In this document: positions 4,486-37,172 of the stretch, piece after piece
Numbering within the stretch: position 1 is the stretch's first letter
Layout: each line of letters opens with the position of its first letter
IMG/VR virus record: IMGVR_UViG_3300031857_000122
Coordinates: 4,965-68,964 of that record
Direction: 5' to 3' (one strand)
DNA: 64,000 bases
From: a virus
Position numbers and translations under genes: made by a program
Notes under the pieces: model-generated
What the model was told of the DNA's origin: nothing
Database searches by the model: none
Seen by the model: only the letters and a program-made list of their open reading frames with translations

Positions 4486-4852
4486 CAAGGAAGACGACAA
4501 GCGTAAGTTGTTCTCCGTTTTAAAGAATTTAAAGGGCAGCTTTGCTGTATCTTTGAAAAAGAATAAGGCTTCCAGGTCTTTAGCGAGTAATCGCTATTAC
4601 TGGGGGGTTGTATTGGCGTACCTTAGTGAAGAAACGGGCTTCACCAAAGATGAGGCACACCAAATCATGCAACGGACATTTCTCAAATACGTTAAAGACG
4701 TACCTGACGGAACGAGCGAAACATTTGTTCGTTCCACTACGTCTCTCAACACGGTGGAAATGAATGACTATATTGAGCAAATACGCATCTTTGCCGTTTC
4801 GGAGCTGGGCGTTTACATCCCGGAGCCGAACGAAATAGTGTATGAGAAATAG
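4460..4852 (+). CDS. NinB/YbcN-like recombination protein
   Basis: RSLASNRYYWG...STTSLNTVEMNDYIEQI pattern. Confidence 0.65.
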   Translation: MIDLLINFDKEDDKRKLFSVLKNLKGSFAVSLKKNKASRSLASNRYYWGVVLAYLSEETGFTKDEAHQIMQRTFLKYVKDVPDGTSETFVRSTTSLNTVEMNDYIEQIRIFAVSELGVYIPEPNEIVYEK

Positions 4853-5240
4853 CAAAAAGCCTGTAAAAAATCCCAGAGTGGCCCGGACTCGCAATGCCCA
4901 AACCGAGACTCAAAGCCAGCACATGAACAAAATCAGGAGCCTGCTCCGAAACCTAAGCCGTTGGTGGAAGCCCTTTCAGATGGCACTGAAGGCTTCTGCC
5001 ACCACTTACACCGTTGGCCGCCGTAGGCGTGTCATGTATATGTGTGCCATTTGTGAAAAGCTGCACGAAAGGGCAAATGTGGAAGTGAATCACATTGAGC
5101 CAGCCGGAAGTCTGAAGAATTACGATGACCTGCCAAAGTTCTGTGAGCGTCTTTTTGTGGAGGATATATCCAAGCTGGAAGTCCTTTGTAAGCCCTGTCA
5201 TTTGGAAATTACCAAGGGGCAAAGAAATAAAATTGAGTAG
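4842..5240 (+). CDS. HNH-like endonuclease
   Basis: CAIC...VNHIEP...LEVLCKPCH. Confidence 0.65.
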   Translation: MRNSKKPVKNPRVARTRNAQTETQSQHMNKIRSLLRNLSRWWKPFQMALKASATTYTVGRRRRVMYMCAICEKLHERANVEVNHIEPAGSLKNYDDLPKFCERLFVEDISKLEVLCKPCHLEITKGQRNKIE

Positions 5241-8377: not shown

Positions 8378-8717
8378 TGGACGTTGTTTTATGTTCATGC
8401 ACGGAGAGACGAGGAAGGAATACGTCTATCCCGCCACCAAATACGTTGTGGGAGAGCCATTGTGGCGACATGGGTTAAGAGCCCATCCGGCAACGGCGAC
8501 GTTAGAACGTGACTGGCAGGCTCTGCAAGCAAGGGGAGAAATCATGCGTTTGTTCCGTGACATGGACAGGCTCAAAAGGCGCATCCCAAAGCTGAGAAAC
8601 AGCGAGAAAATGATAAATTGCACAAGCATTGTGCGTTCCTTTATTCAGGAATTTAAGAAAGGACTAAGGGGAAACAAGAGGAAGAAACATGAAGCTAACG
8701 GAAACGCAAACACTTGA
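8271..8717 (+). CDS. hypothetical basic protein
   Basis: ORF overlapping the TerL start. Confidence 0.5.
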   Translation: MAQRRYKKIRNLAEGTIIYLRGSHIIVKWQVEKIIDGRCFMFMHGETRKEYVYPATKYVVGEPLWRHGLRAHPATATLERDWQALQARGEIMRLFRDMDRLKRRIPKLRNSEKMINCTSIVRSFIQEFKKGLRGNKRKKHEANGNANT

Positions 8718-10914
8718 GCGGAATTGCATCCGGGAGCAAATATGGAATCTGAGCTGCAAAACTCCGCCCATTCCCGAAGACCTATCCACCATCCCCGGAT
8801 ATAACAATCCAAAGGCTAAGTTCCAGAGAACGCCCATTCCGGAGTACATGGCTATTGAAAAAAGCCAGATTCAAAATGACGGCTCTATTCGTTACACGCC
8901 CCTTCAGCAGCAATTTATCAGGGAGGAGGTAAAGAAGATATTTCACTCCGGGCAATGGATGTACATACGGGGCGTACTCACTTGGATAAACCCGTGGATG
9001 TACTTTGGTTTAAACTACTGGAGGCCAGCCGTAGACACCAATGACGGATTCCTTGAGTACAGGGATAGACAAAGAAAGATTCTTCACTTTTGCTGGAACA
9101 TCTATCATAACCACAAAGAACTTGGTGTTGTTTATCTAAAAGGCCGTCAGGAAGGTTTGTCCACCTGGGGTCACTTGATAATGTTCTGGCTTGCCATCCG
9201 GGCCGAGAAACAGAACATAGGCTTGTCATCTTCCGACCAGAAACTTGCTGACGAGAACTTTGACGAACTTATTGCCAAGCCCGTATCCTCATTGCCTATA
9301 TGGCTTATTCCTGTTCACAGGATGAATAAGAACGAGCTTGTCCTGACGGAGCCACCAGAACGCCAATCAAAAACCAAGAAAACCGCCAGCGTTTCCAAAG
9401 CACTTGGAGGCTCCATTAGGCTTCGAGCCCTCACTAAACGAGGATGGGATGGTAAGCGTCTGAACGGTTTGTTTGCGGATGAGGGCGGTAAATGGGTACA
9501 GGTACAGATTACGAAGTGGTGGGCCAAGCAGGTGAGAGCCCTGATGGTGAATGGCCGCAAGAGGGGCTTTGCGTTCTTTCCGACAACAACGGAAGAGGGC
9601 GACCAGGGAGGAGCTGAGTTCCAGAAGTTCTACGAGCAGGCCAATATTGAAACACGGCAGAACGGCAAATATCCCACCACCACAAACAAACTTGTAAGCC
9701 TTTTCCTTCCGGCCTATATGGGACTCCCAGGCTGGACAGATGCTTATGGGAATGACATTGTGGACACTCCCGATGATGAGCAATGGGATTGGATGCAACA
9801 GCACGGGCATGACGAAAGGATAGGCTCAAAGGAAAAGCTGATGCGTGACCGTCAGCAATTACTTGAGGCGGGGCTTGACGACCTTTATGCGGAGGAAATG
9901 CGTCAGAACCCGTTCACGCCATCTGATGCGTTTAATAGCCTTAACGAGCATTGCCCATTTGATGTCACCATCCTGCAAGCCCTGAAGCGCACAGCAGATA
10001 CCAAAGACGTTCAGGACAGAATTAGGCGTGGATACTTCTATTGGCTTGATGCGAAAGAACGCAGCATTGTTGGATGGAAGGAGGACGGAAAGGGCCCTAT
10101 TGAAAGAACCTGGGAGCCTCCTGCCAACCTAATAAACAAGACGCAACTCAAAAGAGGCATAAAGGCCCCCACAAACATTAAGCTGGGGGCGTTTGGCGTA
10201 GACCCCTATCTAAAGGCCAGCACGAAAAAGAAAGGCTCTAAGATGGCTATAACGGGCAAGCTGTATTACAACAAGTATTACGAGGACCAAAATAAGCGGG
10301 AGAGGGATACCACGGGTCGCAACCTTCCCGGCTACTTCCCCACACCTGCCATATTCTTTTCATTTACTCACAGGTCAGCAGATAGCCATTACGACATGGA
10401 GCAGCTCCTGATGGCTGCCGTGTATTATTCCATGCCCATAGTAATTGAGAACAACGCCAGCATAAGCGTGGAGAACTTCTTTAACACAAGGGGGTATGGA
10501 GGATTCCTTTTGCGTGAGGCTGAGATATTAAACGAGGCCAGCCCAACACAAATGCAATGGGAAGTGACAGGTATTCACACGGGCGTAGAAGGGGCTGGAA
10601 GCGATGTGGTGAGGCGTGGAGCCACTTATATGAATGACTTTTTTAGGGGAGATGCGTTGTATCTGGGAGACCACACATACAGTATTGTGGAAGAGCCAAT
10701 ACGCTATCCGTTCCTCACAAGCATAAACGACAATATGCAATTCGACATTACGGACAGGACAAAGAGTGATGCCACAATGTCTTCCATAATGGTGCATTTT
10801 TATGAATACAATGTGAACGACTATAGCAACCCGTTCCTTTATTCAGAAGGCCCTGCAAGCAATTCTAAAAGGCTTTTCCCAAAGGGTACATTTCTAAGAA
10901 GGGTGAGGGCATAA
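8689..10914 (+). CDS. terL: terminase large subunit (crAss-like type)
   Basis: LKGRQEGLST Walker A-like, LFADEGGKW Walker B, FGVDPY nuclease motif, IENN and D..MS near the C-terminus. Confidence 0.9.
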   Translation: MKLTETQTLERNCIREQIWNLSCKTPPIPEDLSTIPGYNNPKAKFQRTPIPEYMAIEKSQIQNDGSIRYTPLQQQFIREEVKKIFHSGQWMYIRGVLTWINPWMYFGLNYWRPAVDTNDGFLEYRDRQRKILHFCWNIYHNHKELGVVYLKGRQEGLSTWGHLIMFWLAIRAEKQNIGLSSSDQKLADENFDELIAKPVSSLPIWLIPVHRMNKNELVLTEPPERQSKTKKTASVSKALGGSIRLRALTKRGWDGKRLNGLFADEGGKWVQVQITKWWAKQVRALMVNGRKRGFAFFPTTTEEGDQGGAEFQKFYEQANIETRQNGKYPTTTNKLVSLFLPAYMGLPGWTDAYGNDIVDTPDDEQWDWMQQHGHDERIGSKEKLMRDRQQLLEAGLDDLYAEEMRQNPFTPSDAFNSLNEHCPFDVTILQALKRTADTKDVQDRIRRGYFYWLDAKERSIVGWKEDGKGPIERTWEPPANLINKTQLKRGIKAPTNIKLGAFGVDPYLKASTKKKGSKMAITGKLYYNKYYEDQNKRERDTTGRNLPGYFPTPAIFFSFTHRSADSHYDMEQLLMAAVYYSMPIVIENNASISVENFFNTRGYGGFLLREAEILNEASPTQMQWEVTGIHTGVEGAGSDVVRRGATYMNDFFRGDALYLGDHTYSIVEEPIRYPFLTSINDNMQFDITDRTKSDATMSSIMVHFYEYNVNDYSNPFLYSEGPASNSKRLFPKGTFLRRVRA

Positions 10915-18383: not shown

Positions 18384-21300
18384 ATGGCAGAATTTGAACA
18401 AATAGAATCTTCGCAGACAACAGGAGGCGGTGAGCCACCAGTTAAAAGCCTTTACAATTCACTTGTAAAAGATAAAGAGTACGGAAGTATATTCAGTACA
18501 TATACACCGGAAGAATTTGAGTCAAACATCAAATCAAATAAGGAGGCGGCAAATTCGCTAAGGCAAATAGCCGTAAGCAAGGGCTTGTACAAAACAGACA
18601 AGGACTTTGATGCCGCCATATTTGCTGTTAAGCCAGCGGCCCCGGCACAACCCGTAACTCAGGCAAAACAGCCCAAAGAAGAGAAGGGTTGGATTAGTAC
18701 AGCTATCACGGAAGGGGCTCCAGGCGTTGTCGCCAAGTTAGCCACGACTCCTTTCGGTCAATCGCTTGGCCGGGCAATGAAGCAAAAGGAAGAAATTACA
18801 GGGGAGCCTGTAAAAAAAAAAGAAGGTACTGGTATCAGTTATGGTGAGTATAAGCGTACCCCGCTGGATGATTATGAACAGATTCAGCAGGAGTATGTTG
18901 ATATTGATAAAACGTATCAAGGGCTTAAAAGTAAAACTACTCCAACAGGACGGCAATTAGCTCTCGGCATAACACCCGAAGTTATCTCTTCCGACCTTAT
19001 AAAATCAAGAGAAGAAAAAAGGAGGAGGTCCGATGCTATTCTTGCTAAATCTCAGCCAGAGATTGAAACATGGGTGGAGTCCATTATAGGAAACAAGGAT
19101 AAAGGAATTTCATCAAAGGTTAGCCTTTCTATTGATACAAAAGAAAAAACAAATCTTCCTCGCGGCCTTTACAGGAACAATGCGGGGAACATCACCGTGG
19201 ATGATGCTGTAACAGACAGCTTTGCAAAAGAAGAAGTACGCAGACGTGGACTCCCTGAAAACGGGGTGGTTTACAAACTATTAAAGAACGCTCTTGATAG
19301 AAGACTTCCTTTTGAATTGGCTCGTCCACAGATTGAGGGGGATGCGGAAAGAAATTTCTTTAAAGAGAATGGCATATCTATAAACGATGCAAGGGCTAAA
19401 GATTTTGTAAAGCAGCTTGGGGGCACAGAAAGCGAGCAGAGAGCGTTAAACGAAAGAACAACAAAACTTGGCGAGCAGATATTTTCCGAAAGGGATGCTA
19501 AAATTAATGAGCTAAACCAGAATCTTAAATCCTTACAAGAGGCGGACAAAAAAAGAATGGACGCTGATGAGGAAGGAATGGCTGCGTACAATGCTGTCAG
19601 GGATAACTTAGTTACCAAATACCAAGACCTCGTAAATAAAGGGGAACTATCCGTAGAGCAGGCCAATGCCTATCTTAATAGCGACCAAGTAAACGAGGCT
19701 GCCAATAGGGCCAGGAACGAAGTGCTTCAAAAGAAGTACGGAGCTAAGATGAAAACGGATTATGACAAGTATCTGTCTTCGTTTGGGAACACTAATTCCC
19801 GTTATAAAGCCCGTTACGAACGTGAAGCAAAGGAGGCGGAAGTTGTAGCCAACGCACAATTAGATAGGCGTGTGGCAGAAATGAAACTCAAATACAAGCC
19901 TTCTGATGCGTTTATTGGCAAGTATAGAAAAGCATACGAATCTGCTGCCAAGAAATATTCTGATACAAAGATGTCTCAGGAGGTGGCACGTGAAGCCGGG
20001 GCTGATGCTGTTGATAGGATTACGCGAAGCATTATGTCCAGTTATGGAGATGGCGTAAGAGGATTGGGGCAATTCTTTAATATGCCCGATGCGGAGCAAT
20101 TTGGAGAAGTGTTGTCTTCTAATTTTAAAGGGGCAAATCTTAAATTAAAGCCAGGCGCAGAAGGATGGAAGCAAGCTCTTAACCCATTCGACCCTGCGGC
20201 ACAACAAGGTTTTGGTCAATTATTGGGCCGCATGGCTCCAGGTCTTGCCGCATCTGCTGCTGTTGGTGCAGCTACGGGCGGACTGGGAGCTCCTGTTCTT
20301 GGTTCTGCTATTGCAGCCGGGCTTACTGGGGGCTTAATGGAAACGGCTGACATTGTAGGAACAATGTATAATGATGTTTTGGAGCAAACCGGAAGCCATG
20401 CTAAAGCGTCAATAGCTGCTAATGCAGCCCTTAAAAGCCAAATTCAAACAGCTCCTGTATATGCTGTGGATGCCTTTGCTTATTTTCCTAAGTTATTCAG
20501 AGGGCTCAAATACGGCAAGAATGCATTTGGAAGAGCCATGTATGGGGCCGGAACGGAATACATAACAGAAATGATGCAGGAGCTTCCTCAGAATGTATAT
20601 GAGGAGCTCATCCGTAAGGGTGTGGAGGATGATAAGCCATACGACCCATCAATAGGCTCTATGCTTGCCAACATCAACATGGAGCGTATTAGTGAAACAG
20701 GCAAGCAGCTAACGGGCACAATCCTTATGGGTGGTGCTCCTTCGTTGTTTAGGGACACAGGGGAGGGGATAAGCAAGCAGCTTGCTAAAAGGGCGGCCCA
20801 GGCTTATTACGCAAAGAATGTTCTTACAAACGCCTCCCATCCGGCTCTTATTCTTGAGAACCAAAGTCAATTCCTGCAAAGGGTGTATGACAAGAAGGGG
20901 AAGAACTTTGCCAATGCCATGATTGGGACGTTCCTGATTAACGGGAACTTAAACAAAGAGCAGGCGCAGGCTCTCACTGTGAGCATGGAGAACTACGAAG
21001 GGTTCAATAAAATACTTGCACAGAAAAAGAGGCAAGACATGAATCCTCTTGCCAAGCAGGCTTTGTTCACCCTTTACAACAAATGGATGACAGCGAGGGC
21101 CTCCAAAAACGAAGAGGCTACACAAAAAGCTCTTGGCGATTTTCAAAAGCTATGGAGCGGAGGAGGAGCCGACCTGCTTCTTGTTCGCCTTGCCGATGGC
21201 TCTACGAATGTCTACACATACGATGACTTCGATACGCTTCTTGACAACGAGAAGATGCAAGAACTCGTAAGGCAGCAGGGATTTGAAATTACGCCATTCT

Positions 21301-23672
21301 CTCAAACTCCCAATGACCCACAAGTGGCCGCTATGAATCAGAGGCTACAGGAGATTTTTGAGAGTGGCCCACAAGCCGCTGCTGAAAGAGAGGATTCTGG
21401 GTTTACAGCCCCTGACGACGAGAAGATTCTGGAAGGTCAGAAAAGAACAGGCTTCCAAGTTGTATCGCCTCTTGCCAATCTTCCCGAAGAAATACAAGCC
21501 GCTCTGCAAGCCGCCACGGACAACCAGGAAGGCTTCGACCCGCAAGCTGTGAGAGATGCATCCAATTACTTGTATCGGCTGTACAACATTACAACAAACT
21601 CAAAGAAGTCCACAACAAGGAACCTTACAAGGGCTCAAATAGCCGACCAAATGGAAGAGCTCGGAACGGCTCTTGACCTTCTTGGTAATTATTACAACAG
21701 GCTTGCCACAGGGGAAATGGAGATTCAGGAGCAAGCTGAACAGCAAGAAGGAGCCGCTCAAGCAGAGCAGACCCAAGCTCCGGGTACGCAACGTCCTCCT
21801 CTCCCAGGAACGCCGCAAGTGAATGTCCTGACGGATGACGAAATCCTTAGCCGTATGACGGAAGAGGAGCGTGATGGCTATTACGACCACATCCTTAAAG
21901 GGGACAAGGATTCGGCTCAGGCAATGATTCGTGGCATGAGGAATGAAATCCTTGGGGCGGAACAGCAGATGGGGGAAGTGCGTGATGCCGCTGCAATGGT
22001 ACAGAACGCTCTGGAAGAGTCTGGCGTTGAAGTGACAATGGTGGACAACCCCGAAGAGTTTGATAAGCTCATAAGGGAGAATGGAGGCACAGGGCAGGCT
22101 GCTGCTCAGGGGATGTTCTTTGCTCCTTCAGGGAAGATATTTATTAACAGGTCACTCCTTCGTGGCAAGGATGCCAAGGTGGTGGTGTGGCACGAGGGAA
22201 CACACCCTGTGATGAACATCATCCGCAACACCAATCCTGAGTTGTACGACAAGGTGGTGACGGGCCTTAAAAAGGCTTCCATAAAAAACAAGCAGATAGC
22301 CGGAATCATACGGGAGCAACAGAGATTGGAGGTGGACCCGGCTCGTCAAGATGATGAGGCTATAGTGGAAACCATTGGTCAGATTGCTGACGGGAGTATT
22401 CTTCTGAGTGACATCCCTACGACACTCCGTGATGCGCTTGTTGAATTCATCAATAAGATAGCGGCTGTCTTTGGCCTTCCTCAGATTAAAGTGTCTGATG
22501 TGGTGGCGTTCAAGAAGCTGGCTGCTGATATTTCTGCTGTCCTTAAAGGCGACAAGAAGTTGGGAGAAGTGGTTGGCAAGGATAACATCAAATCCTATCA
22601 GGACTTAATAGGCCAGGCGGAATCAAGGGGCCAGGCGAGGAGAGCCACGCCATTAACAAATGATACAAATCAAATTATTGAGGATGCAAAAGCGAATGGT
22701 ACATATTTAAAAGCACCTAACGGAAAGCCAACAAATTTAAACGAGTCCCAATGGGCGCAGGTTCGTACTAAAGCGTTTAAGAATTGGTTTGGAGATTGGG
22801 AAAATGACCCAGAAAACGCATCTAAAATAGTAGATGAAAATGGAGAGCCACTGGTAGTTTATCATGGAAGTTCTTATGGAGGAATTGAAATATTTGATAG
22901 AAAACAAAGCGAAAGACTATCATCTGGAGTAAAAGAATTTGGCAATTATTTTGCTACAAATAAAAACTTAGCCGAATTCTATCAAAAAAACGCTACTCTA
23001 AACGAGGATTTCCTTGAAAAAATAAATAAGGATATAAATAAATTAGAGACAAAACTAAATGAAGTTAGAAATAACCGAGATTTTAATGAAATTGAGTCTG
23101 AAATTAATAGACTTAAACAATTAAAAAAAGGTAAAACATATCCGGTATTCTTAAATTTAAGAAAAGTAAAAGAGTTTGATGCTGAAGGGAAAGAAAATGT
23201 TGAGGCATGGAATAATTTAGAAGTTAAAGCATCTTATAAATATGCAAAAAATAGAGACGCCATGGAGTTCTTAAAAGAAGGGCTTTTTGGAGTTGAAAAA
23301 GTAGATGGAGTTGTTGCTAAAAACATAGTAGATGCATTTGTTCAAGGTAATGAAAAATTAAGAAAAGAATTAATTGGGGATGTTGTTTTAGTTTTTGATG
23401 ACAGCCCCAATAAAATTAAATCCGCTACAGAAAATGTAGGCACATTTAATCCTGAAGATGCTCGCATACAATTCCGCAAAGCCTCTCCTGTTTTCTCCCA
23501 GCTTGATGCAGCATTGGCTCTCTCCCCCGTTAAGAGTAAGGAGGCTCGCTCCGAACTCATTGACAAATATGGAAAAGAAACAGTGGACCAAATGATTGAA
23601 ATAACTCGTAATTTTGAAAAAATAATCAACGGCCTTGAAGAACAAGAAGTCGTTACAAAAGATTGTCCATGA
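18384..23672 (+). CDS. large polyvalent/ejection protein A (zincin domain and ADP-ribosyltransferase-like domain)
   Basis: 1762 aa; Gly/Ala-rich hydrophobic segment; VWHEGTH zincin; FKNWFGDW...DENGEPLVVYHG...YF...YPVFLN...IKSATENVGTF ART-like module. Confidence 0.75.
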   Translation: MAEFEQIESSQTTGGGEPPVKSLYNSLVKDKEYGSIFSTYTPEEFESNIKSNKEAANSLRQIAVSKGLYKTDKDFDAAIFAVKPAAPAQPVTQAKQPKEEKGWISTAITEGAPGVVAKLATTPFGQSLGRAMKQKEEITGEPVKKKEGTGISYGEYKRTPLDDYEQIQQEYVDIDKTYQGLKSKTTPTGRQLALGITPEVISSDLIKSREEKRRRSDAILAKSQPEIETWVESIIGNKDKGISSKVSLSIDTKEKTNLPRGLYRNNAGNITVDDAVTDSFAKEEVRRRGLPENGVVYKLLKNALDRRLPFELARPQIEGDAERNFFKENGISINDARAKDFVKQLGGTESEQRALNERTTKLGEQIFSERDAKINELNQNLKSLQEADKKRMDADEEGMAAYNAVRDNLVTKYQDLVNKGELSVEQANAYLNSDQVNEAANRARNEVLQKKYGAKMKTDYDKYLSSFGNTNSRYKARYEREAKEAEVVANAQLDRRVAEMKLKYKPSDAFIGKYRKAYESAAKKYSDTKMSQEVAREAGADAVDRITRSIMSSYGDGVRGLGQFFNMPDAEQFGEVLSSNFKGANLKLKPGAEGWKQALNPFDPAAQQGFGQLLGRMAPGLAASAAVGAATGGLGAPVLGSAIAAGLTGGLMETADIVGTMYNDVLEQTGSHAKASIAANAALKSQIQTAPVYAVDAFAYFPKLFRGLKYGKNAFGRAMYGAGTEYITEMMQELPQNVYEELIRKGVEDDKPYDPSIGSMLANINMERISETGKQLTGTILMGGAPSLFRDTGEGISKQLAKRAAQAYYAKNVLTNASHPALILENQSQFLQRVYDKKGKNFANAMIGTFLINGNLNKEQAQALTVSMENYEGFNKILAQKKRQDMNPLAKQALFTLYNKWMTARASKNEEATQKALGDFQKLWSGGGADLLLVRLADGSTNVYTYDDFDTLLDNEKMQELVRQQGFEITPFSQTPNDPQVAAMNQRLQEIFESGPQAAAEREDSGFTAPDDEKILEGQKRTGFQVVSPLANLPEEIQAALQAATDNQEGFDPQAVRDASNYLYRLYNITTNSKKSTTRNLTRAQIADQMEELGTALDLLGNYYNRLATGEMEIQEQAEQQEGAAQAEQTQAPGTQRPPLPGTPQVNVLTDDEILSRMTEEERDGYYDHILKGDKDSAQAMIRGMRNEILGAEQQMGEVRDAAAMVQNALEESGVEVTMVDNPEEFDKLIRENGGTGQAAAQGMFFAPSGKIFINRSLLRGKDAKVVVWHEGTHPVMNIIRNTNPELYDKVVTGLKKASIKNKQIAGIIREQQRLEVDPARQDDEAIVETIGQIADGSILLSDIPTTLRDALVEFINKIAAVFGLPQIKVSDVVAFKKLAADISAVLKGDKKLGEVVGKDNIKSYQDLIGQAESRGQARRATPLTNDTNQIIEDAKANGTYLKAPNGKPTNLNESQWAQVRTKAFKNWFGDWENDPENASKIVDENGEPLVVYHGSSYGGIEIFDRKQSERLSSGVKEFGNYFATNKNLAEFYQKNATLNEDFLEKINKDINKLETKLNEVRNNRDFNEIESEINRLKQLKKGKTYPVFLNLRKVKEFDAEGKENVEAWNNLEVKASYKYAKNRDAMEFLKEGLFGVEKVDGVVAKNIVDAFVQGNEKLRKELIGDVVLVFDDSPNKIKSATENVGTFNPEDARIQFRKASPVFSQLDAALALSPVKSKEARSELIDKYGKETVDQMIEITRNFEKIINGLEEQEVVTKDCP

Positions 23673-24163
23673 TGAAAATATCCCTTCTCTCCGCAAGTGA
23701 CAAAAAGAAGCTGAACCAAGCCGTTGAGCACGAGCTGTATGCTTCCAATTTCTACAAGTATGCCGCTTCCTGCTGCCAGAAGTATGGCCTGTTCGGGGCT
23801 CAGAAGTTCTTTGAAGCAGAATCTGCTGACGAGCTAACCCATTACTACAAGCTGCGTGACTTCTTTAACGACAGAGGGGACGAAGCTGATATGCCACAGG
23901 TAGATGCTGTAGACTTCAAGGAAGGCATTGACCTTATGGGAATCCTTGATGCCGCATACGAACTTGAGAAAGATTTGGGCGAGTTCTACAATGACTTCTA
24001 CTTCGCCACTAAGGACGCAACGGTTCACGCCCGGATACAGAAGTTTGTAAAGATACAGACGAAAGCTGTGGGTGAGTACGGAGACCTTATAGCCCGTCTT
24101 AGCCTTGTGAGTGAATGCCCAGGAGGCTTGTTAATATTCGACCAGGAACTCGGAAACAAATAA
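23669..24163 (+). CDS. ferritin
   Basis: EHELYASNFY, FFEAESADELTH, DFFNDRG, AYELEK and Q of the ferroxidase centre; ATGA coupling to the upstream gene. Confidence 0.85.
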   Translation: MMKISLLSASDKKKLNQAVEHELYASNFYKYAASCCQKYGLFGAQKFFEAESADELTHYYKLRDFFNDRGDEADMPQVDAVDFKEGIDLMGILDAAYELEKDLGEFYNDFYFATKDATVHARIQKFVKIQTKAVGEYGDLIARLSLVSECPGGLLIFDQELGNK

Positions 24164-24166
24164 AGT

Positions 24167-27100
24167 ATGGCGAAGAACTTAAAGCCCTGTGATTTCATTG
24201 TAAAAACAGGAGGGGAAGCCTTGTCTTCTGCTGAAGAAAGTGCCAAGGAAATCAGCAAATACAAGGGAATATTTAACCCAAATAAAACTGGAGTTCCAGC
24301 AATTGATGACCTTTTAGAAGATGATGGTTATCAGTTCTTCTATAAAGGGGTAAAGGCAGATAGAGTTTTAATGTCCCCAAATGAATATTTGGAAAGAGTA
24401 AGGAAGGGATTAAAAACCAAAACTGATGCTAATATCCTTGCTGGAAAAACAGATGCTATTAAGAAAGCTATAGAGTCGGGAGCGAAAATCAATACGCCTT
24501 TTATATCAACAATAGGAGGTAAGTTTTCCCAAGAAGGCAGAAATAGAGCCGTTGTTGCAAAGGAACTTGGGGAGCAAAAGATTCCTGTATTCATTGAATC
24601 AGATGTCACCTTTGATGATAAAATCAACCGGGGGGCAGAGTTGGTAAAGCAATCTCAAGAAAAAGGCAACAAGACAAAAGAGGATGTTCTTGATGGCATA
24701 AAGAAACTAGGACTGCATCGTGATGGAATTAGGTTTATTGATGACAATTATGATGCAATCGAAGAGAAGTCTTCTAAACTCGGAACAGGCAAAGAGGTGC
24801 GCCTTTCCTACGACGAGATGCGCCAATACCTTTTGGATAATCCTGAAGTATGGAGGGATGTCTCTACAAGGCGGAAGGGGCAGGCGAGGGCGGTTCCTAT
24901 TATTTTAACAGCAAAAGATGTTGTTGTTAAAAAATCTGATGACTTTGCCAATGATGCCGAATATGTTGTTTTAGATAATGGTAAAGAAATAGGAAGGCTA
25001 TGGTATGATAAGTCCCAGAAGAATTGGAGTAATCCTAATTTTTATAGGCCGAACGCAGAACCTTATTCATTTAAAAGTATCTATGGAGATATATTAGGCG
25101 AAACCAAAGAGGAGGCTGTAGCTGAAATTATTAAAAGGCACAACGAAACCAAAAAAGAAGAAGAGCCAAAAGTATCCTATGTCAAAGACGAGATATTAAA
25201 TAACTTTTTAAATATACTAAACGGCACAAAGTCATTAGCCGTAAATCCTATTTCTAAAAAAGAATTTATTTATGACGACAGGGCCGCATTAGAATTTAGT
25301 AGATTTGATAAAGGCAACCGGAAAGAAATAGAACTACAGGATATTGCCGTTTTTGACAAAGGGAAAGGAGAGGGGATGTCTGTGATGAAAGACATTACAG
25401 ATGCTGCCGACAAAGCGGGGATTATTTTAACTCTTGATGCAAAGCCGTTTGGCACAGAAGGTCTTGGCAAGAAAGACCTCATTGAGTTTTATAAGAAGAA
25501 CGGATTTATTGTTGATTACGAAGAAGCCTATGGCGGAGAGTTTGACAATGAAAAAGACCTTATAGACTATGCTTTAAAAAATGAATCTGAAGGAGTTCCA
25601 ATGAAAAGAATTCCTAAAGAAAATAAGGGACAGGCTCGCAAGGCAGGCTTCTCCGGCAACGTAAGCAACGACACGGTGCTGTATGAAGTGGGAGGGGAAA
25701 AGCTACGGGAGTCTAATTACAATGTTGAGGAGGCCCTAAAAGCCGTCAAGGCTTACCTCATCTCCACGGGGATGACAGAGAAGAAGGCCGAAGAGCGAAT
25801 TGATAAATCCAAGCTGGAGCAGAGAATGTCCCGGCTTGCCCTCAATTACGCAGCGTCAGGCCAGGAGGCCGTCTCTGGTATAGCTAAAAGGCTCGTACCT
25901 CAAGAGATTATTGACAGCGTAAACATTGAGCGCAGAACCACCAAGGAGATGCTTGACAGGGGTAAGGAGCTTGTGGATAACGGCACGATTGACCCTGCGG
26001 CTATGGTGTATAGTATAACTTATGAAAGCCCACGTGTTCTTTCTCCTGACGAAGTAGCGGCGGCTGTATATTATAAGAACACTCTTGATAACAAGGCTTC
26101 TACGCTGTACAAAGAAATCAATAAAGCAAGAGAAAAGGGCAATAGAGAGCTTGAGAATAATCTTAAAGCACAACTTAAAGATACAGAAAGAGCTTTAGTT
26201 GAATACGAGAAGTTCTCTATAATTACGGGTAATGTTATGGCTCGTGCCTTTGGTTTACGTAAACTTCTCGTAGACGCTTCATATACTCTTGTAAATATGA
26301 AGAACAAATGGGGGGCCAAATTTGGGTTCGTGCCAGATGATGTGGCTAAGAAGTTTGAGGAGTACGACAAAGCAATGCAAGACCTCAAAAAGGCAGAGGA
26401 AGAATTTGAAAAACTAAAACAGGAATGGGATAATAGGGATGTTGCCGAAAGACTTGCCGAACATTACGAGGCAGAACGCACCAATCCTAAAGTTGCCAAG
26501 CCTAAAGTAATTGCCACCCTGCAAAGCTGGGGTAGCAGGATTGCCAAGCCTATTGCTTCTATATTCTCAAAGAAGGGAAGTGGACAGGCAAGGAAAGCAA
26601 AGGATACGTCCAATGGCGAAATGGTGTACAGGGATGCTGTTGGAATGGTGATGGATTATGTAGCCGATAAGAATGACGTTTCCGATAAGGTCGTCAATGA
26701 GGCTATTGCCAAAGCCATGAAGTACATCAAGGCTTCCACTTGGTACGGCACACTTACGGCAGACGAGAAGGTAGAAGCAGAAAAAGAATTCACCTCATCC
26801 ATCAAAGACGGCGTTGTAGAGCCATTTGCTGTAGGCAAGAATGGCTTGAAGATACCAAACGATGTAATCAAGTATTACGTAGCAGAGGAGGGCTTAAAGG
26901 ACATTGATGAAGTTTCCAAAGCCATCCTTCGTGATTACAAAGCAGAACTTCCTGAAGGTATTACAGCAAGAGATATACGGGATGCCATTACGCAATATGG
27001 TGTCCGCATTATGCCAAGCCAGGAGGAGATAGATAAAACCATCCGTGAGATGAAACGGATAGGGATGAAACGTTCCCAGCTTGAAGACATTAAGAATGGA

Positions 27101-30100
27101 ATCCGTCCATTGAAATCTGGATTGGTTAGGGATGAGAAAACTCAAATCATCCGAGATATGGAACGGGAAATCAATCAAGGGCTCAAAGAACTTGGGATTG
27201 ATGATGTAAACCCAGAGGTGTATCTCAAGTCTGCTCTTGAAAGAATCAAGACAGCCCTTGGCAATCAGATTAAAGACCTTGATAAGGAAATCAAAACCAT
27301 CGAGGATAAGATTGCCGCAGGGGAAAAGGTGGAAGGGTTTAAGAAGTCCGTTAAAAAAGTTGAATACGACACGGCGGCACAGGCTCTTAAAGAACAACGT
27401 GATGCCCTGAAGAAAGTTCGTGAAGACCTTCTTGAGAAGGCCGGAGTCAATACTCAAATCAAAATTGACAATGCCATTAAGGCTCTTGAGCAATCCATTA
27501 CGGAATACGAAAGAAGACTAAATGAAGGAGACTTCTCTTCTTTCCGTACAGAAGAGACCCTACCCGAAACTGATGAGCTAAAAGCGGCAAGGGAAAAGAG
27601 GGACGCTCTTAGGAAAGAGTATAACGAACGCAAGAACGCTCTTCTCACTCCTGAGATGAAGGAGATGAATAAGCTCCGGGATTTGCAAGACAAGCTGGAT
27701 GACCTACTACAGAAGGATGCAGAAGGCTATTACGCACAGGGAATAGAAGTGCGCCCAAGGGCCACCCCAGAATCTCCAGCCGTAAAAGATTTGAGAAATC
27801 AAATTGCGGCAATGGAACAGCGGCTTGGCATTGCTAAACTTCCAGAAGCAAAAGAACTTGAAAGGCTCAGGGAGCAACTTGCAAAGATTATTCGTGGCGA
27901 AACCACTACGGGGAAAGGAAAACAACAAGGACCTGACCTTCCAAGCATTGCCATCCTCAAGCAGAAGATACAGAATGCCAAGGATAGTATGGGCATCACT
28001 TTTAGGAAAAAGGAGGACGCTGCTCTGAAGGCTAAGGAGGAGGCTATCAAAAAGATTGAAAGAGAAATAGCCCAGATTGAAAGAACCGGACAGCGCACAC
28101 CAAGAGCACAGAAGTTTAATTCAGCAGCAACAGAAGCTATGAGCCAAGTTGTAAAGGGTAAGAGAAAGGCTCTTGAGCAAATCCTTGAGCAAACAGGCAT
28201 TGCCGAAAAGGAGCGCATGGAGGCGGCCAAAGAAAGAGACAGGAGATACATTGAAGAACTTGAGCGCAGGCTAAGGGAAAAGGATTTCACTAAAAAACGA
28301 AAGCCTCCCATAGACTTCGATGCAGAAGGGAAAAGAATACAGCGTGAGAAGCGTAAGATTAAAGACCTTTATGACTACGAGTTTGCTAAGAAAGCCTTGG
28401 AAGAAAGAGAGTTCTCTCGTAAGGCATTTGATTTGCTTGCGGCTGGCTACAACATTCCAAAGTCATTGCTTTCAGGACTTGATATGTCAGCCCCGCTTCG
28501 TCAGGGCCTTCCATTCTTAATTGGGCAGCTATTGGTTCCGAGTGTAAAGAATTGGAGGCTATCATTTGAGGGCCAGAAAAAGGCTTTGAATAACCTGAAG
28601 TTCATGTTCCAAAGCACATACGATGTGTTTAGTGGCATTGGAGATTCTAAGGAATTCTACGACAACTGGCTTACAGACTTAAAAGAAACGGATGATTACA
28701 CTCTGATGAAAGCCGCAGGGCTTTACATAGCAGAAGAATCAGCCAAGTTAAAAGCAGGGGAAGAATTGTTTGCCAATAATCTTCTGCATAGGCTACCTAT
28801 ATGGCAGAAGCCACTTGTCGTCCAAGGTCGTACAATACTTCCAGGTCTTGGGATAGCCACACGAAGCGAAAGGGCTTTTAATAGTTTTATTAACTATCAG
28901 CGTGTACAAATATTCCGTGATATGGCGGAAGTGTTTAAGGATGCTGGGCTATCTGAGCAACAGAACTTGCAGGACTTTAAAAACCTTGCTTCTGCCATTA
29001 ACTTATTTACGGGAAGAGCTGGGCTCGGAAGAGCAGAATCTTCAGCAGGAATCCTGAACAATTTGTTTTTCTCTGTAAGACTTCTTGTTTCAAGATTCCA
29101 GATGTTTAACCCTCTATGGTACGCATCACTTTATAGGGAATCTCCTAAAGCGGCATGGTTTGCATTGCAGACAACAGCAAAGTTCACTATTGCCATGATG
29201 GAGCTTCTTGGCCTTGCCTATCTGTACTATGGAAGTGATGATGACGATGACACTAAGGTGGACCTTAATCCACTAAGTTCGGGATTCGGAAGCATCCAGA
29301 TTAGCAAAGACACCAAGGTGGACATCACGGCAGGCTATGCAAAAGCTATAGGTTTTGTTTCTAAACTGCTTGCCGGAGAGTTTGTTTCATCCACAACGGG
29401 AGAAACAAAAGAAATGAAGCCAGAGGATAAAGCTCTTCTTATGCTTAATTTTATTTCAGGTAAAGCAAACCCTTCATTGAGAGTTCCTATAAATTACTGG
29501 CTATCGCAGGTAAACAAAGAGGGGGATAGGGTGACTCAGTTTGGGGAATTGTATAGTTTGCAGGAAGACATTTTGGAGCTGATTCCTCCACTAATTGTAC
29601 AAGACTTTGTTAAATTACAAGAGAAAGAAGGACTTACAAAAACCTCGGCTCTCATCCTGGCTTCTTTCTTTGGTGTATCCGTTTCTACAAAACCTGAGCG
29701 ATACAAAACGGCTAAGGATATATCAAGGGAGACTATTAAAGGCGAGACAAGAGAAACTAAACAGGAGGAAAGAAAGGCTGACGTTCAATTTAAAGAAGGC
29801 GACCCAGAGAGATTCGAGAAGCTGATTGATAAGGAAGCCGAAGAAGAGTATGCCTCAAAGTATCCGCAGATTGAGAAGTCTGATATGCCTTCAGAGGAGA
29901 AGAATAAATTAAAGGATAATTTGTATTCAATTATCAAATTGGAATTGGCTCAGGATAAATTCTTCTCAAGGACATCTGATAAGATTGGGCCTGAGTATTT
30001 CCCCGCTAAAAAGCCATACAAATCAGACGAACTTGTTGAAGCATTCTTCCACATTATGTCCGGCACACCATATCCTCCAATATCGCCTTTTGCCCCCAAA

Positions 30101-30370
30101 GACCAGGCAGATGCGGCAGAAAGGCTTAGGCTTGGTAAATTGGAATTGGTGAATAAACTTGACGACAAAACAAAGGCCAAGATTATTGAAATGTACGGCA
30201 AGCAAGCAGAGGAAAGGAGGGCTGCCGCAGCTTCATTTAACAAGATGGATGTTACAAGGAACGGGAATAAGATAGATTGGAATGAAGAGTTCCAGATTAA
30301 CGCAGACGGCATTCCTGATTGGTACACTATGTACGAGGAGTATGATAGCCAGAAGATTAAATTGCAGTAA
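24167..30370 (+). CDS. large polyvalent/ejection protein B (ParB/Srx-like domain, GNAT domain, coiled coils)
   Basis: 2067 aa; MSPNEYL...QEGRNRAVVAKELG..KIPV (ParB-like); KGKGEG...LTLDA..LIEFYKKNGF (GNAT); C-terminal DMSAPLRQG ejection-type region. Confidence 0.75.
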   Translation: MAKNLKPCDFIVKTGGEALSSAEESAKEISKYKGIFNPNKTGVPAIDDLLEDDGYQFFYKGVKADRVLMSPNEYLERVRKGLKTKTDANILAGKTDAIKKAIESGAKINTPFISTIGGKFSQEGRNRAVVAKELGEQKIPVFIESDVTFDDKINRGAELVKQSQEKGNKTKEDVLDGIKKLGLHRDGIRFIDDNYDAIEEKSSKLGTGKEVRLSYDEMRQYLLDNPEVWRDVSTRRKGQARAVPIILTAKDVVVKKSDDFANDAEYVVLDNGKEIGRLWYDKSQKNWSNPNFYRPNAEPYSFKSIYGDILGETKEEAVAEIIKRHNETKKEEEPKVSYVKDEILNNFLNILNGTKSLAVNPISKKEFIYDDRAALEFSRFDKGNRKEIELQDIAVFDKGKGEGMSVMKDITDAADKAGIILTLDAKPFGTEGLGKKDLIEFYKKNGFIVDYEEAYGGEFDNEKDLIDYALKNESEGVPMKRIPKENKGQARKAGFSGNVSNDTVLYEVGGEKLRESNYNVEEALKAVKAYLISTGMTEKKAEERIDKSKLEQRMSRLALNYAASGQEAVSGIAKRLVPQEIIDSVNIERRTTKEMLDRGKELVDNGTIDPAAMVYSITYESPRVLSPDEVAAAVYYKNTLDNKASTLYKEINKAREKGNRELENNLKAQLKDTERALVEYEKFSIITGNVMARAFGLRKLLVDASYTLVNMKNKWGAKFGFVPDDVAKKFEEYDKAMQDLKKAEEEFEKLKQEWDNRDVAERLAEHYEAERTNPKVAKPKVIATLQSWGSRIAKPIASIFSKKGSGQARKAKDTSNGEMVYRDAVGMVMDYVADKNDVSDKVVNEAIAKAMKYIKASTWYGTLTADEKVEAEKEFTSSIKDGVVEPFAVGKNGLKIPNDVIKYYVAEEGLKDIDEVSKAILRDYKAELPEGITARDIRDAITQYGVRIMPSQEEIDKTIREMKRIGMKRSQLEDIKNGIRPLKSGLVRDEKTQIIRDMEREINQGLKELGIDDVNPEVYLKSALERIKTALGNQIKDLDKEIKTIEDKIAAGEKVEGFKKSVKKVEYDTAAQALKEQRDALKKVREDLLEKAGVNTQIKIDNAIKALEQSITEYERRLNEGDFSSFRTEETLPETDELKAAREKRDALRKEYNERKNALLTPEMKEMNKLRDLQDKLDDLLQKDAEGYYAQGIEVRPRATPESPAVKDLRNQIAAMEQRLGIAKLPEAKELERLREQLAKIIRGETTTGKGKQQGPDLPSIAILKQKIQNAKDSMGITFRKKEDAALKAKEEAIKKIEREIAQIERTGQRTPRAQKFNSAATEAMSQVVKGKRKALEQILEQTGIAEKERMEAAKERDRRYIEELERRLREKDFTKKRKPPIDFDAEGKRIQREKRKIKDLYDYEFAKKALEEREFSRKAFDLLAAGYNIPKSLLSGLDMSAPLRQGLPFLIGQLLVPSVKNWRLSFEGQKKALNNLKFMFQSTYDVFSGIGDSKEFYDNWLTDLKETDDYTLMKAAGLYIAEESAKLKAGEELFANNLLHRLPIWQKPLVVQGRTILPGLGIATRSERAFNSFINYQRVQIFRDMAEVFKDAGLSEQQNLQDFKNLASAINLFTGRAGLGRAESSAGILNNLFFSVRLLVSRFQMFNPLWYASLYRESPKAAWFALQTTAKFTIAMMELLGLAYLYYGSDDDDDTKVDLNPLSSGFGSIQISKDTKVDITAGYAKAIGFVSKLLAGEFVSSTTGETKEMKPEDKALLMLNFISGKANPSLRVPINYWLSQVNKEGDRVTQFGELYSLQEDILELIPPLIVQDFVKLQEKEGLTKTSALILASFFGVSVSTKPERYKTAKDISRETIKGETRETKQEERKADVQFKEGDPERFEKLIDKEAEEEYASKYPQIEKSDMPSEEKNKLKDNLYSIIKLELAQDKFFSRTSDKIGPEYFPAKKPYKSDELVEAFFHIMSGTPYPPISPFAPKDQADAAERLRLGKLELVNKLDDKTKAKIIEMYGKQAEERRAAAASFNKMDVTRNGNKIDWNEEFQINADGIPDWYTMYEEYDSQKIKLQ

Positions 30371-34808: not shown

Positions 34809-37172
34809 ATGTTCGCACCAGATTTATCCGTTTCGTTTGATAAGAAGAAGTCTAAGGAGTTCGGAAAGGACTTCGCTTCTGGTTTGGAGACTTGGCACTT
34901 GATGCAAATTGAGAGCCCTAACTTTCCCAAGCGGAGATGGGCGGAGAACTATCAATATGCGTTAGGCAATCAAAGCTACCTACGCACGGTGCAGCCCATA
35001 GACAACCTGGGGGCCAACGACTCACAAACGCTTCTTGGGGCCGACCTTCGCAACATGAAGCTCACGTCTACAATCCTGGAAAGCATTGTAGGAAAGCTGA
35101 ACAAGCAGAAGTTCAAACCATCCGTATCTATGATAGATGCGTTTGCTATGGACGAAAGGCTTAACTTTAAAGCTAAACTTCAGGCTGCTATGGCCCTCAA
35201 ACAACAGGGAGCCGAAATGGAGCAATTCCTTCAGCACCTTGGACTCACTGCGGACGACGTGCCGATTGACCAAGCAGAACTTGAAATCAAGCTAAACACA
35301 ATGCCGCAATTTCTTGAGGAAATGTCTCTTGAGTTGGCATTGACAAAAGTGGGGCATGAAAGTAATATAGAAACACTTGCCCGGATGGCTGACTATGATG
35401 ATGCCATCACGGCTGTTAGGGGTCATTATATCAATCGTGTAAATGGAAAAAGACAAATCGAATGGCTGGACCCGCTTAATAGCGGTCATAGTATGTCCTT
35501 TTATCCTGATGGGCGTGATATTGTTTGGAGCTACAGAATACGGCCTGTTCCTGTTGAGCAAGTTCGCATCGAAGCGCAAGAATTCCTCACGGATTCAGAA
35601 CTAAACAATCTCCGTGGAGGACAATTTAGCCTTCTCTATAATTGGCTTTATTGGTGGGCAGCTCCGGGAGCGAACAATTACTTAGCCACCTTTACCAACA
35701 CCTATACAGACTATGTACTCGTTATGGACTTTGAGTTCGTCTCCACAGACCTACTCTACACCAACATTAAAAATGGCCGGGCCTATAATGGATATGCCAA
35801 AAAAACTGCCGGAAAAGATGGTGACGTTTACACAGCTAAGGTTCAGAACCTTTTCGGGGGTAAGTACATTTGCGGCTCCGGATACGTCTATGACTACGGG
35901 GTTAAGCCTGGTGTTCGGCAACCTATCGTAACCAACAACGAGGATGCCTTTAAGGTGAACGCCTCTAAGGTGTATGGTTCATTTGTGTGGCATCACTCCG
36001 GAATGATTAGGGGTGAATCCACATCCATCATTGATAGAGCCAAGCCTCACGTTGATGCTATTGAAGACACCTTTAAGAAGTTCAAGACATACGTTAAAGA
36101 GTTCCTTCCTTGGATGATTAGGGTGGACCAGGATGCTCTGGCTGACCTTGCTATGAAAGAAGGGGATGATGTGACGGCAGAGGACTTGATGACAACGCTC
36201 CTTGAAAGAGGTCTTGGTGTTGTGTCATCTTCTGCTTATAAAGGATTCCACAATGCTTCCGTAAAGGATGCCATTAGCATTATATCAAATGACGGGGGAG
36301 GAAACCTGCAAGTATTGTGGGGCTTACTCCTTCAACAAATCAACCTCCTGCATGATGTTGTAGGCGTTCCAAAAGTGGACACCGGAGGCGGTGTTAATCC
36401 AGAAGTAGGTAAGGCCGTAACGCAAATGCTTCTTCAGGGAAGCGACAATGTTCTGTCTGGATTGATGGATGCGAAAATCAAACTTTACTCAAGTTTGTGG
36501 GAGAATCTCATGTATGACATTTTGCAAACAGGAGAAGTGGGTGTGGCTAAGAATATGCCATTTGCTGTCCCACCCGGCAACCCAGACGAGCGCATCCCAA
36601 ATCTTGTTGTTGAGCCACTGCCTACAGAAGCCGACTGGCAAGACTTGTATGCAAAGGCACAACAAGCACTTGCTTCCGGAAGCCTTACAATGGACCAATA
36701 TGCCTACCTGAAAATCATAGACAATATGAAGCAGGCTTGGGCGTATTTGGCTGTGCAGCAGAAGAGGACTGAGATGAAGAAGATGGCCCAGCAACAAATG
36801 GTGGACCAAGCCAATACGGAAAGACAGATGTTGTCTAACCAGCAGGCTCAAATGGGCAAAGAGAAATTGGAGCAATTAAAAATATTCGGGAACGTAATTC
36901 AGGAATATGCAAAGGCTGCCTTTGCTAATCCTATGAATAGTCAAAATCCCGATATAATTTTGCAGAGGATACAAATAGAAATGGATAAAATGTATGGAAA
37001 CAATGACGCAGGAAATGAACAACAGCCAGCAGGACTTGGGCAACAACAACCTGAGCAACAACAGCCAGAACAATATGGAGAACCCCTTCCAGACGGAGGA
37101 GAGCAATCTCAATTTGATGGAGAACCCATTCAAGGTTACGAAAGTGACCTTGGGGGAGGAGAACTACAATGA
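34809..37172 (+). CDS. portal protein
   Basis: 787 aa upstream of scaffold/MCP; YALGNQ, DVVGV and a Q-rich C-terminal coil as in crAss-like portals. Confidence 0.8.
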   Translation: MFAPDLSVSFDKKKSKEFGKDFASGLETWHLMQIESPNFPKRRWAENYQYALGNQSYLRTVQPIDNLGANDSQTLLGADLRNMKLTSTILESIVGKLNKQKFKPSVSMIDAFAMDERLNFKAKLQAAMALKQQGAEMEQFLQHLGLTADDVPIDQAELEIKLNTMPQFLEEMSLELALTKVGHESNIETLARMADYDDAITAVRGHYINRVNGKRQIEWLDPLNSGHSMSFYPDGRDIVWSYRIRPVPVEQVRIEAQEFLTDSELNNLRGGQFSLLYNWLYWWAAPGANNYLATFTNTYTDYVLVMDFEFVSTDLLYTNIKNGRAYNGYAKKTAGKDGDVYTAKVQNLFGGKYICGSGYVYDYGVKPGVRQPIVTNNEDAFKVNASKVYGSFVWHHSGMIRGESTSIIDRAKPHVDAIEDTFKKFKTYVKEFLPWMIRVDQDALADLAMKEGDDVTAEDLMTTLLERGLGVVSSSAYKGFHNASVKDAISIISNDGGGNLQVLWGLLLQQINLLHDVVGVPKVDTGGGVNPEVGKAVTQMLLQGSDNVLSGLMDAKIKLYSSLWENLMYDILQTGEVGVAKNMPFAVPPGNPDERIPNLVVEPLPTEADWQDLYAKAQQALASGSLTMDQYAYLKIIDNMKQAWAYLAVQQKRTEMKKMAQQQMVDQANTERQMLSNQQAQMGKEKLEQLKIFGNVIQEYAKAAFANPMNSQNPDIILQRIQIEMDKMYGNNDAGNEQQPAGLGQQQPEQQQPEQYGEPLPDGGEQSQFDGEPIQGYESDLGGGELQ

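Follow-up and report, generated by a model that had tools for sequence, protein, structure and literature searches.

What is a short, repeated peptide doing at the borders between the modules of two giant phage proteins? The question is raised by a stretch of 64,000 nucleotides (positions 4,965 to 68,964 of the IMG/VR virus record IMGVR_UViG_3300031857_000122), which is referred to below, at its full length, as the window. In it two giant genes, encoding the proteins P0001 and P0002, carry between them five copies of a peptide of the form GQAR or IQFR, here called junctions or seams. The answer preferred here, which we hold to stand about evenly between right and wrong, is that the seam peptide would be a polyprotein-type processing signal at which each chain is cut into separate enzymes, probably by the HExxH domain embedded in the first protein. 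The features on which the argument turns are given below with their basis (ART, ADP-ribosyltransferase; GC, G+C content; ORF, open reading frame; AF2, AlphaFold2).

18384..23672, + strand: giant gene 1, P0001, 1762 residues, in the order core, HExxH domain, junction, ART module, junction, C-terminal tail (ORF list, translation, orthologues P0044-P0048)
22008..22598, + strand: zincin-like HExxH domain, about residues 1209-1405 (HExxH motif, AF2 model)
22629..22646, + strand: junction 1, GQARRA, residues 1416-1421 of P0001 (translation)
22647..23465, + strand: ART-PolyVal module of low GC (Pfam PF18760, BFVD, GC)
23466..23483, + strand: junction 2, IQFRKA, residues 1695-1700 of P0001 (translation)
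23484..23669, + strand: conserved C-terminal tail, about 60 residues, …ITRNFEKIINGLEE…KDCP (relatives' alignment)
24167..30370, + strand: giant gene 2, P0002, 2067 residues, in the order leader with nested insert, junction, small domain plus GNAT, junction, helical segment, junction, core (ORF list, translation, orthologue alignment)
24167..24877, + strand: N-terminal leader, residues 1-17 and about 208-237, split by an insert (orthologue alignment)
about 24218-24781, + strand: ParB/sulfiredoxin-like insert nested in the leader (ESM Atlas lead, GC)
24878..24895, + strand: junction 3, GQARAV, residues 238-243 of P0002, closing the leader (translation)
24896..25627, + strand: small beta-rich domain plus GNAT module of low GC, the GNAT at about 25184-25621 (Foldseek, phmmer)
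25628..25645, + strand: junction 4, GQARKA, residues 488-493 of P0002 (translation)
26582..26599, + strand: junction 5, GQARKA, residues 806-811 of P0002, within the core common to all orthologues

Translation places all five hexapeptides exactly where the initial annotation had put them. Indeed, the loose pattern Q[AF]R occurs in P0001 and P0002 at precisely these five junctions, compared with a shuffled expectation of 1.18 (14/3000 shuffles), and the stricter patterns stand out further: GQAR is found four times against a shuffled mean of 0.055 (0/3000 shuffles reach 4), and [GI]Q[AF]R[RKA][AV] five times against 0.009 (0/3000). Elsewhere in the window Q[AF]R turns up once in 53 further ORFs (15,235 residues), in the non-junction form LQARGE, and an extra GQAR at 9343 lies in a minus-strand frame full of stops. 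The synonymous differences claimed for the motif codons are real and include a change of Arg codon family, the four GQAR copies reading GGC/GGG/GGA/GGA for Gly, GCG/GCG/GCT/GCA for Ala and AGG/AGG/CGC/AGG for Arg. Since synonymous and codon-family changes separate the copies, and since the junction sites share no DNA repeat of more than 18 nt (78% identity), the comparison supports a conservation that acts at the level of the protein. A DNA-level repeat or recombination site at the junctions was rejected as a candidate on the same absence of any repeat above 18 nt. As a separate observation, an 18-nt tandem near-repeat (78% identity) at 22601-22636 runs up to and into junction 1, giving …IGQAES RGQARR…, and may reflect the origin of the seam.

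The structural models put the copies between folded units. In the AF2 model of P0001 residues 1150-1762 (mean per-residue model confidence, pLDDT, 75.8), the low-confidence stretch at 1406-1423 holds GQARRA and that at 1698-1716 begins at the RKA of IQFRKA, both lying between folded parts. In the model of P0002 residues 1-520 (mean pLDDT 55.2), low-confidence stretches at 230-244 and 486-520 surround junctions 3 and 4; this model is the weaker evidence for linkers, because residues 1-147 are also without confident structure (pLDDT below 50). What emerges is a repeated short motif in predicted linkers between functional units, common to both giant proteins, as would be looked for in a cleavage site.

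The first pair of motifs had been said to enclose an ADP-ribosyltransferase-like module, and this is what it encloses: residues 1484-1688 of P0001 match Pfam PF18760 across model positions 1-140 of 140 (E 7e-13, 50 bits vs a gathering cut-off of 31.2), and 48 fold matches were obtained in BFVD at E <= 0.001, many of them named ART-PolyVal, such that the ART identity is confirmed. The second pair, annotated as enclosing a small domain and a GNAT, is upheld through the predicted fold (Foldseek probability 1.0). Fourteen PDB matches of the GNAT module reach E <= 0.001, those listed being GNATs (GCN5, RimI), and its model is of pLDDT 72-90 across residues 340-485. The acetyltransferase AcrVA5 (6iuf_A) is matched by Foldseek at E 1.4e-3 (TMt 0.72, root-mean-square deviation 2.8, 21% identity) and is the sole sequence match found by phmmer in the PDB (E 0.0047). 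Because the isolated module has no match to a GNAT-clan Pfam family at E <= 1, its membership is a matter of fold, at which level the modelled structure confirms it. As a lead only, the module is a candidate delivered anti-defence acetyltransferase with AcrVA5 as its nearest solved relative. Standalone GNATs of 156 and 163 residues terminate 3-5 residues past the point at which the module ends. Unrelated effector-type domains are thereby combined, as in polyvalent proteins, with the ART in P0001, the GNAT in P0002 and more in orthologues.

The enclosed DNA had also been described as A/T-rich, with the shift at the motifs. The claim stands for the enclosed modules: GC is 0.316 in the ART module (0.19 at third codon positions, GC3), 0.350 in the small domain plus GNAT and, outside the pairs of motifs, 0.379 in the ParB-like insert, for comparison with 0.468 in the P0001 core, 0.434 in the rest of P0002 and 0.452 in the window, and the change is located within about 100 nt of the motifs. 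It does not extend to junction 5 (26582), where no shift is found. In composition, the enclosed modules are supported as foreign.

Orthologues from protein searches fall at 87-91%, about 61-65% and 30-40% identity, and those of the home lineage (class A) fix the borders of the modules. P0044 (90% identical) and P0045 (87%) align to P0001 over residues 1-1423 and 1-1421, respectively, and then rejoin at the tail; because they run straight into it, the ART module of 279 residues must have been inserted cleanly, with GQARRA and IQFRKA as its borders. In P0046 two GQARS enclose another module, and the tail homology of P0046 and of P0048, which is of the second lineage described below, begins at P0001 residues 1693 and 1698, respectively. 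In gene 2, the high-identity alignment to P0002 begins exactly at Q489 in four of the five close orthologues (P0004, P0005, P0006 and P0008), with four different N-terminal architectures preceding it; in the fifth, P0009, the BLAST alignment extends 39 residues beyond this border. The leader homology of P0002 stops at residue 243, just past GQAR. At the Q489 site orthologues read GQARKA, GQARMA, IQFRKA or IQFRRA, and since QAR and QFR substitute for each other at one orthologous site, they are one signal. Across ten class-A proteins, 26 of the 27 Q[AF]R tripeptides are preceded by G or I and sit in a junction-type context (consensus [KR]-[GI]-Q-[AF]-R-[KRS(I)]-[AIV]), the lone exception lying inside the HExxH domain of P0046. 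The modules of the orthologues include ART-like, L5 gp82-like, DUF7178, methyltransferase and C5-methylase types, and at least seven unrelated modules adjoin the motif. The proposal that the motif marks points of cassette exchange is therefore supported by alignments that put module borders at it, junction 5 excepted; at that site G806, Q807 and A808 are invariant in nine sequences from both lineages.

Two further elements are retained whatever modules adjoin them, these being the tail of about 60 residues in all relatives of gene 1 and a leader of about 45 residues (MAKNLKPC…YDEMRQ…NP..W) in all relatives of gene 2. From their conservation, they may possibly be packaging or ejection signals.

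A second lineage, class B (P0010-13, P0047-48 and loci L004-L010; 30-40% identical), carries a different peptide, K-[LM]-Q-[APF]-S-[LE]-G-G-R, at the same seams, with 35 unique sites. It stands in both giant ORFs of L007 and L010, and copies or near variants stand in both of L005 and L008; within a locus the copies have a DNA identity of only 0.59-0.63, with switches of Ser and Arg codon family. The two codes meet in one module, the small domain plus GNAT of P0002 and P0013, which is 78% identical over residues 208-494 vs 30% for the rest. Its upstream flank reads …RRKGQARAVP… in P0002 vs …GKMQPSLGGREVP… in P0013, and its other flank …PKENKGQARKAGFS… vs …PKEGAKLQFSEGGRGE…. Because both flanking motifs match the resident lineage, the signal is a property of the recipient phage rather than of the module, which is what a shared lineage-specific reader predicts. 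Class B retains QARA at the first seam, after the HExxH domain. Beyond these two classes, other lineages have further repeated linkers or none (EGKKAEAKEE-type in P0016/17/19, KFSK-type in P0018-23), and the distant polyvalent proteins of L001-L003 are without GQAR, IQFR aligning with the N-x-D-I-R-[FY] that ends their ART. In other words, IQFRKA is the class-A form of a tail, N-x-D-I-R-[FY], which closes ART-PolyVal modules in many polyvalent proteins. The lineages sampled amount to only a few independent ones.

The candidate reader of the code lies within P0001. HEGTH was found at residues 1270-1274 (nt 22191-22205), 146 residues ahead of junction 1, as expected from the VWHEGTH noted shortly upstream of the first motif. 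The zincin-like metallopeptidase fold is defined by a HExxH helix and a downstream Glu helix after a three-stranded sheet, and the AF2 model of the domain has three short strands followed by the helix carrying HExxH. A search of 1.84 billion proteins gave 158 representatives of its family (E <= 0.001), almost all of them giant proteins, with the consensus HEGxHP…DExxVE; Pfam applied to 15 members gave one weak SprT-like match (E 0.0058). Because neither curated families nor PDB profiles nor fold searches bore out the fold, the zincin label, which draws on HExxH and the conserved downstream DExxVE, is to be taken as putative. With regard to the motif, Q[AF]R occurs within 45 residues of the end of the domain in 28 of 119 usable representatives (24%), vs 1.3% of random windows from the same proteins, and Q[AF][RS] in 40/119 vs 4.0%. 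Moreover, relatives of gene 1 that are without HExxH (the L012 ORF, P0016 and P0017) have 0 Q[AF][RS], and their partner proteins are without the seam motif, in contrast to the HExxH-bearing relatives, in which 10/10 checked have at least one Q[AF][RS]. The post-domain enrichment, the co-absence, the QARA that class B keeps at the seam after the domain and the occurrence of one motif class per phage give indirect support, at the level of sequence, to a link between the putative zincin and the motif. Within the family, one subfamily (P0133, P0164, P0176, P0196 and P0183) has a post-domain QAR followed some 25 residues on by another conserved element, …AK.TE.KT..G..QPSM.L….

Could the seams simply be uncut? 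On this account the peptide is a junction or insulator linker at the sole permissive insertion points, kept to cap or insulate neighbouring folds or to aid the in-frame exchange of cassettes, and the chains stay whole. We regard it as unlikely, though with a real chance of being correct. The exchange points do coincide with the motif, other lineages have repeated linkers of their own, N4 virion RNA polymerase and other proteins with such domains are described as unprocessed in part of PMC5512222, and the PT-VENN pre-toxin motifs mark the exchange points of polymorphic toxins in part of PMC3482391. However, a passive linker would have no need for Q-[AF]-R to stay invariant, with its neighbours also fixed, at every seam of two proteins, and the account leaves unexplained how both flanks of a 78%-identical module came to be rewritten to the code of the recipient. 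Nor is there DNA homology to guide an exchange, and junction 5 is conserved where nothing is swapped; across the wide family, moreover, the motif is enriched directly after the HExxH domain.

If the peptide is read, the reader might still be something other than the embedded HExxH domain, such as a different protease of phage or host origin, or a factor of packaging, ejection or the portal that takes hold of each module without cutting. A lineage-specific code present in both proteins needs one shared reader and names none, the leader and tail, by their conservation, look like signals for packaging or ejection, and T4 relies on its prohead protease gp21 and not on an embedded enzyme. Against this, a scan with PHROGs found no prohead-protease family among 52 ORFs, the junction form of the motif is absent from all other ORFs of the window, the capsid-block proteins included, and the presence or absence of the motif tracks that of the HExxH domain. 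Such a reader is, on balance, rather improbable. Most improbable by far is that the motif constitutes the opening residues of a repeated helical domain or a piece of the folded modules: helical segments do follow two copies, and IQF is the final strand-like piece of the ART model (pLDDT about 70), but the segments after 25645 and 26599, which had been thought to resemble each other, are unrelated down to the sensitivity of a profile-profile comparison (BLASTP E 0.5; hhalign probability 0.9%), and a part of one fold would not be expected beside so many unrelated modules.

The processing of a polyprotein at the seams is thus the reading that is followed here. In this scheme the two giant genes would encode cargo polyproteins of the phage particle, their presence in the virion being an assumption based on the block in which the genes lie and on published relatives. 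Each protein would consist of a conserved chassis and a terminal peptide (the C-terminal tail in gene 1, the N-terminal leader in gene 2), with exchangeable enzyme modules, namely the ART, the small domain plus GNAT and others in relatives, placed between the two. The seam peptide would be read at the level of the protein by one lineage-specific reader, most likely a protease, for which the HExxH domain is the best candidate; it could act on its own C-terminal border first and on the other seams afterwards. Were the cut to adjoin the Q, the whole chains of 195 and 234 kDa would give products of about 156 + 32 + 7.5 kDa and 27 + 28 + 36 + 144 kDa, respectively. Common to all variants of the seam is a polar or basic residue with A, F or Y after it; a metalloprotease with a specificity for the residue that follows the cut would fit this pattern. 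The cutting itself, together with its agent, its timing and the exact bond, we infer from the motif, its place and its rewriting between lineages.

Several observations weigh against this scheme, and they are best taken together. Junction 5 lies within the conserved core and does not adjoin a variable module, the ParB-like module lies outside the pairs of motifs, one lineage has a DNA methylase behind the leader without the motif, and the first seam of class B (QARA) is unlike its other seams. The HExxH domain has no match in Pfam, in NCBIfam, in the PDB by phmmer or in the PDB by the profile of its family, and the Foldseek searches of the PDB and of wider fold collections gave no zincin match, their lists being dominated by other parts of the model (the wide list is filled by a helical hairpin inside the ART model). 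The counts that associate motif and domain come from related proteins and are not independent events, and further copies of the post-domain tripeptide across the HExxH family number 44 vs 30.1 expected, such that a repeated private code is at most weakly indicated as a general trait of the family. In the P0002 model, low pLDDT reaches beyond linkers into other unresolved parts. From the literature, N4 virion RNA polymerase, ArdC and TraC1 carry such domains yet travel unprocessed, according to the portion of PMC5512222 that deals with them, and the crAss001 virion paper reports full-length masses with no mention of proteolysis.

A wider reading may be drawn from the same material, and it is a tentative one, clearly more likely wrong than right: phage polyvalent proteins may be true polyproteins, in which an embedded zincin cuts a private, evolvable code, first at its own C-terminal border, and thereby releases exchangeable anti-defence enzymes, whether inside the capsid or after infection in the cell. 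The codes would all be [Q/R/K]-[A/F/Y] seams, with GQAR/IQFR here, [LM]Q[APF]SxGGR among the sister phages and N-x-D-I-R-[FY] in many more lineages. The cleavage motifs of RNA viruses co-evolve with the protease that reads them. If the wider reading holds, sister phages rewrite all the seams of both proteins together in a similar co-evolution of protease and site, and an enzyme inserted behind the leader or ahead of the tail, with a seam on either side of it, turns into injectable cargo. This would explain the cassette swapping of injected anti-defence enzymes (here the ART and the AcrVA5-like GNAT) and would let thousands of giant phage ORFs be annotated with the proteins that they actually yield.

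The ParB-like insert had been annotated as a module preceding the second pair of motifs. Its position upstream is correct; it is, as said above, not bracketed by the motif, and is instead nested in the leader, which in P0002 aligns with residues 15-50 of orthologues that are without the insert. The insert sits in a loop of the leader (…GGE / ALSS…LGTGKE / VRLSYDEM…), and in the orthologue P0006 an unrelated insert occupies that loop with unchanged flanks. Judged from these alignments, the leader loop is a second, different kind of insertion slot. The nearest ESM Atlas clusters of the insert are sulfiredoxin/ParB_N at 0.90, which is a lead only; there is no Pfam match, and phmmer against the PDB returned nothing relevant.

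With regard to its surroundings, the source record is that of an uncultured virus of 68,964 bases with an estimated completeness of 68%. The two giant genes sit between the large terminase and the portal in a block on a single strand (+), in which the following neighbours are placed:

8689-10914, + strand: large terminase (PHROGs scan)
23663-24163: ferritin-like gene of 166 residues, between P0001 and P0002 (Pfam Ferritin, E 2.8e-16)
34809-37172, + strand: portal (PHROGs scan)

The ferritin-like protein is identical at 150/166 positions (90%) to the product of the equivalently placed gene of a sister-lineage locus (L005 9452-9952), in which the flanking giant proteins are only 30-40% identical to P0001 and P0002; such a value would point to either very strong constraint or recent exchange. 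The replication block contains two HNH endonuclease genes at 1851-2366 and 4842-5240 (PHROG E 3.9e-15 and 2.9e-20). As to affiliation, the large terminase of the window shares 26% identity with its counterparts in Flavobacterium and Cellulophaga podophage records, and no DFDxD polymerase motif occurs in any + frame of the window, which is not proof of its absence because the record is only 68% complete. Lacking DFDxD, and with a terminase of only that identity, the phage is not filed, on sequence grounds, as a member of the Crassvirales, for which database matches span the ART module alone. A scan of viral contigs with P0002 gave no close relatives, tblastn of P0002 against phages gave no match and the matches of P0001 by tblastn were confined to the ART module.

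How does such a system compare with those already described? The closest is that of the polyvalent proteins, treated by Iyer, Burroughs, Anand, de Souza and Aravind in 2017 (PMC5512222, as represented here by part of its text), in which ART, GNAT, ParB-like and other effectors are likewise strung together with a HExxH domain. Zincins are proposed there to process these proteins, and P1 DdrB is given as processed. The difference lies in the explicit, lineage-specific seam peptide and the breakpoints described above; term searches of that text, supplement aside, turned up neither a cleavage peptide nor a motif between domains. Processing by zincins has been a prediction since 2017 with no named site, and the locus pins down the candidate sites exactly, predicts the sizes of the fragments and provides a natural swap of specificity between lineages that share a near-identical module.

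A comparable arrangement is that of gp65, gp66 and gp67 of the Cellulophaga phage phi14:2, giant proteins of neighbouring genes, one of them zincin-like. In part of 10.1101/2020.03.07.982082 a fused crAss-like 'huge polyprotein' is held to be likely cleaved, and the zincin is placed in gp65; the phi14:2 proteins are virion-packaged and come, in that part, without a proposed site, and their likeness to P0001 and P0002 is one of description. The Zeta-crAss paper contains nothing on processing-related terms.

T4 offers the likeness of a terminal targeting peptide, a motif and variable injected cargo that includes an ADP-ribosyltransferase: in the relevant part of PMC9026906, gp21 cuts off the targeting peptides and trims the packaged ART Alt at either end. 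There, the cargo comes from separate small genes and is cut by a prohead serine protease with an L/I-x-E logo, whereas several modules here share a chain, the motif is another and the candidate protease is embedded. The polymorphic toxins resemble the locus in that short conserved elements, the PT-VENN pre-toxin motifs, lie between a constant delivery part and exchangeable enzymatic tips, and the part of PMC3482391 concerned with them suggests that such junction motifs may be processing sites. In contrast, these toxins are bacterial, secreted, accompanied by immunity genes and limited to one variable tip per protein, and their exchange is aided by DNA homology with cassettes, of which there is none at the junctions of the window.

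Lastly, the polyproteins of RNA viruses, with their embedded proteases, have the same repeated short motifs between functional units, and PMC5512222, in the part drawn on here, itself makes this comparison for polyvalent proteins. The enzymes and the viruses are unrelated, and cleavage, established in RNA viruses, is putative here. Literature searches found no paper naming such a junction motif in polyvalent proteins, DIRF/DIRY included. The overall picture is that the processing of polyvalent proteins by zincins is known already as a proposal, to which the locus adds an explicit, lineage-specific junction code.

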